From a plasmid, in assembly GCF_058153355.1 (NCBI RefSeq), contig NZ_JBLWLY010000003.1: 2,028 bases of DNA; one strand, written 5' to 3'. Below the pieces are notes generated by a model. That model did no database searches, was not told the origin of the DNA, and saw nothing but the letters and a program-made list of their open reading frames with translations. Below are positions 1 through 2,028 of the stretch, piece by piece. The position numbers were made by a program, and so were the translations under genes. Position 1 is the stretch's first letter. Each line of letters begins with the position of its first letter.

Positions 1-441
1 ATGAGCAAGGACACCCAGAGAATCACCCAGATTAACGATCAAGGTGAGATTGTTGGCGGCTTCGTCGCGGTAATCAGACCCAAGCAAAAATCGTCATTTC
101 AGAGGCATTTCACTATGAACCAAGACGCATTAAAGATCCTCGCTAAGGAGCTAACGGGCGAGCAATTTAAAGTTCTAATGCTCATGCTCGCTGATCTGGA
201 TTACGAGAATTTCATCCAAATTGCACAGGCTGATATAGCGGATGCATTGGAGATGCAAAAGACCCACGTAAGCCGCGCTGTTCGTGCTCTTCTTGATGTA
301 GGCGTGATCTTTGAAGGTCCGAAAGTAGGTAGATCCAAAACCTATCGGTTGAACGAGCAATTCGGCTGGAAAGGAACAGTAAGCAATCACAAAAAAGCCC
401 TTAAAAACGGCCTCAGCGTTATACAGGGCGGCAGAACCTGA
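1..441 (+). CDS. Putative plasmid replication initiator, winged-helix HTH, RepL-like (function tentative)
   Basis: Intact 146-codon ORF beginning with ATG at position 1 and ending with TGA at 439-441. The central segment (LTGEQFKVLMLMLADLDYENFIQIAQADIADALEMQKTHVSRAVRALLDVGVI) has the pattern of a MarR/winged-helix recognition unit. Overall length and layout resemble small RepL-family replication proteins (assignment from memory of the family, not from a search). It is paired with a relaxase gene as in small plasmids. An alternative internal start exists at ATG 115-117, preceded by AGAGG at 101-105. Confidence 0.6.
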   Translation: MSKDTQRITQINDQGEIVGGFVAVIRPKQKSSFQRHFTMNQDALKILAKELTGEQFKVLMLMLADLDYENFIQIAQADIADALEMQKTHVSRAVRALLDVGVIFEGPKVGRSKTYRLNEQFGWKGTVSNHKKALKNGLSVIQGGRT

Positions 442-1735: not shown

Positions 1736-1803
1736 AATCAGGCAATGAATATCGCTTTTGAAAGAGCAGGAACCGCTCGCCGCAGACTCATGACCGAACG
1801 TAG

Positions 1804-1826
1804 TGAGCGAATGAGCGAGGAAGCGG
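1804..1826 (+). repeat. Short tandem direct repeats TGAGCGA / TGAGCGA / GAAGCGGA (iteron-like)
   Basis: TGAGCGA occurs at 1804-1810 and 1812-1818, followed by the degenerate GAAGCGGA at 1819-1826. The same GAGCG core recurs in the opposite orientation at 1719-1724 (inside the hairpin loop) and at 1775-1779, and in direct orientation at 1926-1930. Confidence 0.3.
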
Positions 1827-1832
1827 AATTTC

Positions 1833-1868
1833 CACTCCCCGTACATAGAAATCCGTACACTCCGTAGC
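1833..1868 (+). repeat. Direct repeats CACTCC(CC)GTACA / CACTCCGTAGC
   Basis: CACTCC at 1833-1838 and 1858-1863; CCGTACA at 1839-1845 and 1853-1859; CCGTAGC at 1862-1868. These are three closely spaced copies of a CCGTA core. Confidence 0.3.
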
Positions 1869-1962
1869 TAAAAAACGTTGGTATTCAGAGCTAAACCGCG
1901 CGCACGCGTTATAAGATACAGAAGGAGCGATAAAAAAACGTATGTATGGCGAGGGGTTACAT

Positions 1963-1968
1963 TTGACA
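1963..1968 (+). promoter_or_regulatory. Consensus -35 hexamer TTGACA abutting the tandem operators
   Basis: Exact TTGACA at 1963-1968. AATAAT (-10-like) hexamers lie in the centre of each downstream palindrome (1977-1982 and 1998-2003), but spacing to a canonical -10 is not ideal, so the promoter geometry is uncertain. Confidence 0.3.
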
Positions 1969-1970
1969 TA

Positions 1971-2009
1971 GTTACCAATAATGGTAACACTGTTACCAAT
2001 AATGGTAAC
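1971..2009. promoter_or_regulatory. Two identical 18-bp palindromic operator-like sites (GTTACCA-ATAA-TGGTAAC), centre-to-centre 21 bp
   Basis: Copy 1 is 1971-1988 and copy 2 is 1992-2009, identical at 18 of 18 positions. Each has 7-bp arms (GTTACCA and TGGTAAC) around ATAA. A 21-bp offset is two helical turns, the typical arrangement for cooperative binding of a dimeric HTH protein on one DNA face. Confidence 0.55.
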
Positions 2010-2028
2010 TCAAGATAGGTTATTTTCG

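Follow-up and report, generated by a model that had tools for sequence, protein, structure and literature searches.

What binds the two closely spaced, near-palindromic sites that precede the replication gene of a very small plasmid, and what does binding do? We address this question for the contig NZ_JBLWLY010000003.1, a stretch of 2,028 bp that was analysed as a whole (hereafter "the window"). The plasmid has two genes: rep, which encodes a 146-amino-acid (aa) helix-turn-helix protein, and mobV, which encodes a MobV relaxase. An earlier note on this DNA had proposed that two 18-bp palindromes beside a −35 box form the operator of a tightly autoregulated promoter, and that the dimeric winged-helix protein bound there might be Rep. 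We conclude that the winged-helix Rep encoded by the plasmid very probably binds the two 18-bp sites specifically, with the sites serving as an operator through which the rep promoter is repressed, and probably also as a landing pad for Rep at the replication origin. The system is apparently an uncharacterised, autoregulated rep promoter-operator of a small RepL/pKL1-like replicon. Rep proteins that repress their own promoters by way of palindromes are a textbook feature of plasmids, and the result is solid, not surprising. What is new here is a recurrent specificity switch that involves one residue and one base, together with a hint of two in-frame forms of Rep.

Two tandem sites linked to rep

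The 18-mer GTTACCAATAATGGTAAC occurs exactly twice in the plasmid, at 1971–1988 and 1992–2009. The two copies are identical and lie 21 bp apart, start to start, exactly as the earlier note had described. This arrangement is non-random, since none of 200 dinucleotide-preserving shuffles contained any match to the 18-mer, even with three mismatches allowed. The description of each copy as a perfect palindrome has to be corrected: each 18-mer has two mismatches to its own reverse complement, and consists of 7-bp arms (GTTACCA/TGGTAAC) that flank a non-palindromic ATAA. The half-site GTTACC is found four times on the plasmid, where 0.47 occurrences are expected, and all four are operator arms. The two-copy, 21-nt unit that contains the palindromes is the sole tandem direct repeat of the plasmid.

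The whole window is a complete circular plasmid. It is 100% identical over its full length to 2,028-bp plasmids of Escherichia coli, Shigella and Klebsiella, one of which, pB349aT_3 (NZ_CP091776.1), is an identical complete circular record. A differently permuted record, AP022430.1, runs uninterrupted across the window ends (...GGTAACTCAAGATAGGTTATTTTCG|ATGAGCAAGG). Circularity, which the earlier note had introduced as an "if", is therefore confirmed by both kinds of record. On the circular molecule, the second site is followed 19 nt later by the rep ATG at position 1, the distance that the note had given on that condition.

The same architecture recurs next to rep in other replicons. A tblastn search of PLSDB with the Rep protein returned 268 records. 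The relatives include Col(MG828)-typed plasmids of 1.46–1.6 kb, whose single gene encodes a 92%-identical Rep homologue, as well as Salmonella pBT3 and plasmids of Pantoea, Arsenophonus, Aeromonas and Enterobacter. (Papers on Salmonella D23580 treat pBT3 as unannotated.) Upstream of rep, every relative examined, the most distant at 69% Rep identity, shows one layout: a TTGACA-like box, 2–4 nt, the palindrome GTTAYN-N6-NRTAAC, a 3-nt linker, the palindrome again, ~17 nt, and the start codon. At ~47% Rep identity, the same layout and the 21-bp period are still present in Crocosphaera plasmid D and Bacillus thuringiensis pBMB0228, where the box, the tandem palindromes and rep are found at L130 1040–1170 and L131 960–1080, respectively. 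Since the module is found in plasmids of a cyanobacterium and of B. thuringiensis, it is far wider than Enterobacteria.

Linkage between the sites and rep does not depend on searching with the protein. When metagenome contigs were scanned with the DNA pattern alone (TAGTTAY-N8-RTAAC-N3-GTTAY-N8-RTAACT), 100 loci were recovered, 87 of which have an open reading frame (ORF) that matches the Rep-family hidden Markov model (HMM) and starts ≤90 nt downstream. Several of the 13 remaining loci are frameshifted rep genes or lie at contig ends. The sites and the rep gene form one unit. This pattern scan was far richer than scans for Rep relatives in genome and viral collections, which gave just 8 and 2 loci. 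Of 5,426 complete E. coli genomes, 122 have the regulatory region, in each case on a plasmid; it is also present in Klebsiella, Salmonella (pBT3 of ST313) and many metagenomes.

Not all parts of the sites are equally conserved. Across relatives, the outer arms and the 21-bp period are constant, and the central 6 nt are free to vary: 154 sites have 51 different centres, including TCTAGA, ACAGGT and TTCAGG. The two centres within one plasmid are identical or reverse-complementary in 45 of 74 cases, and they differ between plasmids. Two plasmids that are otherwise 98.5–100% identical to the window (L002 and L004) have, in site 2, the centre ATTATT, i.e., the reverse complement of AATAAT, with the arms fixed. 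The first of these (NZ_CP063339.1, 2,033 bp) has five additional bases and a frameshifted rep of 80 aa, annotated as a 62-aa "replication protein"; this is either an assembly error or a defective copy. Two metagenome contigs (L041 and L124) each carry two different family replicons, with the same GTTATC arms and different centres. These double replicons are possibly cointegrates or chimeras, or possibly a hint that the centres contribute to specificity.

Rep residues covary with operator bases

If Rep binds the sites, residues of its recognition helix might be expected to change together with the bases of the arms. Among 74 unique combinations of Rep and operator, Asn89 is accompanied by T at half-site base 5 at 42 of 42 loci, and His89 by C at 29 of 31, the other two being mixed. 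Likewise, Arg92 goes with C at base 6 (65/65 loci), while Lys, Glu or Ala at residue 92 go with G. The association is specific to these residues. When all protein columns were scanned, residue 89 shared 0.99/0.99 bits of mutual information with base 5, with only 0.22 for the runner-up column, and residue 92 was the top column for base 6.

When the recognition helix was masked for tree building, the parsimony counts on the tree were the same for residue 89, for base 5 and for the two taken together, namely 22 changes each, meaning that changes in the residue and the base always coincide. A conservative count by clusters gives at least 5–6 independent His/Asn switches. Some pairs of Rep proteins share 97–98% identity outside the helix and have different residues (His or Asn) at position 89 as well as different bases in each of the four arms. 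Two distant members, which were found through the protein and not the pattern, also follow the rule: the Crocosphaera Rep has Asn with GTTATC, and the B. thuringiensis Rep has His with TTACC. Asn-A, His-G and Arg-G are classical preferred contacts between amino acids and bases. A fifth potential half-site, GGTTAC at 1955–1960, was considered and rejected; it shows no covariation, and stays GTTACA in L005-type plasmids with a GTTATC operator.

These data make a case, as strong as comparative evidence can be, that the Rep recognition helix reads the operator arms. The suggestion that the operator of a dimeric winged-helix protein belongs to the plasmid's own Rep is thereby strongly supported on three counts, i.e., the conserved layout, the 87/100 linkage and the covariation of residues and bases. 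In the mechanism we propose, one Rep dimer would occupy each site, with one recognition helix per GTTACC arm; within each arm, the C:G pairs at positions 5 and 6 would be read by His89 and Arg92, respectively. Because the centres are 21 bp apart, i.e., two helical turns, both dimers would lie on the same face of the DNA and could bind cooperatively.

A bolder proposal, which we advance tentatively and with some doubt, is that the palindromes are the only Rep sites, operator and origin being one element without separate iterons, and that the His89/Asn89-C/T toggle is a recurrent incompatibility switch. The toggle consists of a single-nucleotide codon change plus four changes in the arms. If the proposal is correct, the toggle would let sister plasmids escape each other's control, and nature would already supply, in this family, orthogonal pairs of repressor and operator, and of replicons, whose specificity could be read from one residue. 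Two family records occur in one genome in 2 of the 122 E. coli genomes, too few for a test of incompatibility by co-residence. There seems to have been no experimental work on this Rep family. With the operator and its reading residue in hand, direct tests become possible of how copy number is controlled, of incompatibility, and of the minimal origin in replicons that are among the smallest found in nature. The His/Asn-C/T rule is also a compact natural case of the evolution of a recognition code, and could be used for orthogonal mini-replicons or repressor-operator pairs.

Predicted promoter, and probable operator and origin roles

The position of the sites relative to the rep promoter suggests what binding would do. 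The consensus −35 hexamer that the earlier note had placed directly before the first copy is present, and most of 77 unique relatives have a TTGACA-, TTGACG- or TTGAAA-like hexamer 2–4 nt before the first site. The predicted −10 element is composed of the right arm of site 1 and the 3-nt linker ACT. In a comparison of 61 relatives with a TTxxxx −35 hexamer and the spacer fixed at 17 nt, position 6 of the −10 hexamer is T in 56, and position 2 is A in 50. As the offset of the −35 hexamer from site 1 goes from 2 to 3 to 4 nt, the linker changes with it (ACT, xTx and Txx, respectively), and the T is always 23 nt after the −35. Promoter and sites are thus coupled, since the register of the −35 and the −10 thymine is kept by compensating changes. 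In B. thuringiensis pBMB0228 the promoter has another register relative to the sites, and still overlaps them. The transcription start is predicted at ~1997–2000, inside site 2.

The earlier note had described the AATAAT centres as −10-like, a reading that we do not uphold: they lie 8 and 29 nt from the −35, the wrong spacing, and the centres vary freely in relatives. In-frame ATGs within the centres (1981 and 2002) could, in principle, start a longer ORF; they are absent in near-identical variants and in relatives, and this candidate was rejected. TAGGT, which the note had taken as the ribosome-binding site, contains an AGG in the position of a weak Shine-Dalgarno sequence, where relatives carry GGAG, GGGAG or AGGG.

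According to this model, site 1 fills the promoter spacer and contributes to the −10 element, and site 2 covers the transcription start. With site 1 on the −10 and site 2 on the start, bound Rep would shut off its own transcription, and self-repression would set the level of Rep and, hence, the copy number. The same sites would serve as the landing pad for Rep in replication initiation. Between operator and origin function, we favour both.

An origin role is favoured because the operator arms are the only cognate half-sites, lie at a fixed distance from a conserved box, and adjoin a block that resembles a single-strand initiation (ssi) site; the palindromes are probably also Rep's origin-binding sites. 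The box, AAGATACAGAAGG, is carried by 63 of 91 upstream regions (unique sequences), and in 61 of these 63 it starts 54–56 nt before the operator. The more divergent members have a variant of it, ACATAGACATAAGG, in the corresponding position. Just upstream, at 1897–1908, is an alternating purine-pyrimidine tract, CGCGCGCACGCG; several relatives (L106, L085 and L087) have (CG)n or (CA)n runs at this position, and others have none. Further upstream is the non-coding block. By blastn, 1763–1828 is common to L005, L007, L013 and pKL1, with ~85–90% identity, and 1813–1866 is common to L012, L014 and L015. The block presumably resembles the primosome assembly site of ColE1/pBR322, and, within the replication module, is likely a site of the single-strand initiation or primosome-assembly type. 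It probably accounts for many of 573 megablast matches.

The closest comparisons are with plasmids that are similarly small. pKL1, a 1,549-bp E. coli plasmid, codes for essentially nothing but a small winged-helix Rep, RepA, which is a distant homologue that shares the ...GWKG...NH tail and is reportedly autoregulated, according to Burian and colleagues in 1999. It also shares the ssi-like block. Rep-binding sites and inverted repeats lie just upstream of repA, in the oriV region (PMC3832669, citing Burian 2003); binding in the window is predicted from covariation. The two systems differ in that the pKL1 repeats (TGTCGCATCCAGGATG...) have neither sequence nor layout in common with those of the window, an integration host factor (IHF) box is reported for pKL1 and none occurs above chance in the window, and pKL1 RepA lacks the conserved N-terminal, beta-rich segment of the 146-aa family.

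The pHW126-like plasmids pIGMS31 and pIGRK are small MobV plasmids with a MarR-like winged-helix Rep that is distantly related to RepL, and with an ssi in the replication module. Inverted repeats directly precede rep and overlap its promoter, a likeness that concerns architecture only. In pIGMS31, two inverted repeats that lie just before repM and overlap a near-consensus promoter are the sites to which RepM binds most strongly, and transcription starts inside the second repeat, IR2 (bioRxiv 10.1101/2022.12.05.519187). In pIGRK, RepR and RepR' autoregulate, with the in-frame, N-truncated RepR' acting as a repressor (PMC6854812). Unlike the window, which has no such iterons, pHW126-like plasmids have an origin formed by four 20-bp iterons and a CR element, and their Rep proteins have 201–248 aa as opposed to 146. 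The window does have a conserved box of its own, at a fixed distance from the operator.

More remote parallels exist outside plasmids. At marO, dimers of the winged-helix protein MarR bind two palindromes that span the −35/−10 region and the start; the fold and the palindromic sites, with one arm per recognition helix, are as proposed for Rep. However, MarR is a ligand-sensing regulator and not a plasmid replication protein, and the N- and C-terminal extensions of Rep are unrelated to the dimerisation helices of MarR. The lambda O initiator binds, as a dimer, tandem palindromic repeats of ori-lambda. These four sites are inside the O gene and, in contrast to those in the window, overlap no promoter.

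Three other explanations of the sites were weighed. The sites might be origin iterons only, to which Rep would bind so as to open or nick the origin, with an incidental promoter overlap and no meaningful autoregulation. Rep is, after all, the sole protein of the 1.46-kb relatives, the sites are its only cognate sites, and they keep their distance to the conserved box. Rep also has weak matches to the N-terminal domain of lambda O, whose sites are also tandem palindromes (TIGR01610, E = 4.6e-4, and PF04492, E = 3.6e-3, both below the curated cut-offs). This explanation is nonetheless unlikely, given that compensating changes preserve the register of the sites with both the −35 and the thymine of the −10, that the B. 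thuringiensis promoter has shifted relative to the sites yet overlaps them, and that all characterised relatives autoregulate (PMC6854812; bioRxiv 10.1101/2022.12.05.519187). A centromere-like role in partition, with a winged-helix adaptor such as TubR or ParR bound to the palindromes, is very improbable. TubR is among the many winged-helix matches in Foldseek and PDB searches, and tandem repeats on one face of the DNA recall centromere arrays, but there are just two repeats and no partner nucleoside triphosphatase, the relatives encode Rep alone, and the family matches Pfam RepL and is homologous to the pKL1 replication protein.

We give equally little credence to the idea that the sites bind a host regulator or act only as a DNA or RNA structure (a cruciform, a terminator or a hairpin in the 5' untranslated region). 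AATAAT and GATAAC-like strings do suggest a box for the host regulator Fur, as do Fur-like centres such as ATTATTGATAAC in some relatives. However, the best Fur-box match in the window has 7/19 mismatches, is located elsewhere and is no better than chance, and freely varying centres leave no conserved host-factor motif there. As for structure, a terminator scan flags a minus-strand stem between the two sites, made of the right arm of the first and the left arm of the second, whereas no Rfam match was found at E ≤ 1, and a structured RNA was rejected as a candidate. Covariation with a residue of a plasmid protein would be unexpected for either a host site or a pure structure.

Several points count against an operator-and-origin role for the Rep sites. 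The covariation proves that Rep reads the sites and says nothing on the effect of binding; the case for repression, and for tight autoregulation in particular, comes only from the overlap of the sites with the promoter. A generic promoter scan calls no promoter in the window, missing that of rep because only 3/6 bases of its weak −10 element match. The centres may carry specificity that is outside the model. For the origin, the argument is that no other sites exist and that the spacing to the box is fixed, and the architecture of AT-rich DNA, DnaA boxes and IHF boxes is not above chance: GC content drops only to ~40% at 1900–2000, no DnaA box in the plasmid exceeds chance, and the IHF box WATCARNNNNTTR, with one mismatch allowed, has three matches where 2.4 are expected, none of them within 1870–2028. 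With just two repeats, both palindromic, and no DnaA box above chance, the region does not resemble a classical iteron theta origin of the R6K or pPS10 type. The window Rep has no match to Pfam RepL (PF05732) at E ≤ 10. Lastly, no publication in the paper library searched was found to contain these operator sequences or the Rep protein accessions.

Rep, a possible short form, and other features

An AlphaFold2 model of Rep has a winged-helix core at residues 41–117 (predicted local distance difference test scores of 75–92), with helices at 76–82 and 87–100 and strands at 103–105 and 114–117 that form a beta-hairpin wing. Winged-helix matches in Foldseek and HMM searches include ArsR/SmtB, MarR, CodY and TubR. 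The earlier note had called Rep "RepL-like". This holds at the superfamily level, since, in a set of 20 diverse family members, 7 match Pfam RepL at E ≤ 1e-3, the best of them at 1.3e-8, and 15 at E ≤ 0.1; the window protein itself has no match, and its membership would thus be transitive and confined to that level. The RepL family is typified by Firmicute plasmids of the pSN2 type, and its own mechanism is poorly understood. A Bartonella homologue, 35% identical to Rep, carries a RepL annotation; no operator of the tandem-site kind is visible upstream of its gene. The relationship to pKL1 RepA is detectable by hhalign with the Rep family profile (probability 95%, E = 3.9e-8, 70 columns) and by BLASTP with the window Rep (23% identity, E = 0.007, across the winged helix alone).

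Codon usage within rep suggests an internal translation start that would yield a 108-aa Rep' consisting of the winged helix only. The codon for Arg35 is AGG in 52 of 52 unique relatives, as opposed to 26 of 374 (7%) other Arg codons. The codon just before it mostly has AG at its end, the codons nearby show synonymous variation, and Met39 never changes. In RefSeq, several relatives are annotated with Met39 as the start. In the proposed mechanism, Rep' would be a dedicated repressor and full-length Rep the initiator. pIGRK has a full-length and a short Rep, the short form being the negative regulator (PMC6854812).

The features of the plasmid are listed in Table 1.

Table 1. Positions of the observed and predicted features in the 2,028-bp window
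Feature	Position	Strand	Remarks
−35 box TTGACA	1963..1968	+	6/6 match; 2 nt before site 1
Rep-binding site 1 (predicted)	1971..1988		arms GTTACC(A)/(T)GGTAAC, variable centre; fills promoter spacer, contributes to −10
−10 element (predicted)	1985..1991	+	AACACT 1986–1991 with 17-nt spacer, or TAACAC 1985–1990 with TG at 1982–1983
Rep-binding site 2 (predicted)	1992..2009		identical copy, 21 bp (two helical turns) downstream; covers predicted transcription start
Weak Shine-Dalgarno sequence AGG	2017..2019	+	9 nt before rep ATG at position 1, across the circular junction
rep	1..441	+	146-aa winged-helix protein, RepL/pKL1-RepA superfamily; annotated "MarR family" or "replication protein"
Internal ribosome-binding site and start (probable)	100..117	+	CAGAGG 100–105; in-frame ATG (Met39) 115–117, 9 nt after CAGAGG
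Recognition helix, residues 87–100 (predicted)	259..300	+	His89 codon CAC 265–267; Arg92 codon 274–276
Conserved box AAGATACAGAAGG	1913..1925	+	upstream of operator; possibly a promoter enhancer or the core of the origin (nick or unwinding site)
Non-coding block common to pKL1 and Col(MG828) mini-plasmids	1763..1866		blastn
mobV	505–1473	−	MobV relaxase

Upstream of mobV, at 1540–1570, is a candidate hairpin and nick region of a MobV-type origin of transfer (oriT), with a perfect 8-bp inverted repeat, CACTATCA-AGA-TGATAGTG, followed by TACTCAC. At 1694–1735 is a perfect 10-bp inverted repeat (TCGTCAAGGG ... CCCTTGACGA), the arms of which are separated by 22 nt. Between the convergent rep and mobV genes, at 449–479, lies a hairpin (AATGCCGCAAA / TTTGCGGCGTT) that is probably a bidirectional terminator.

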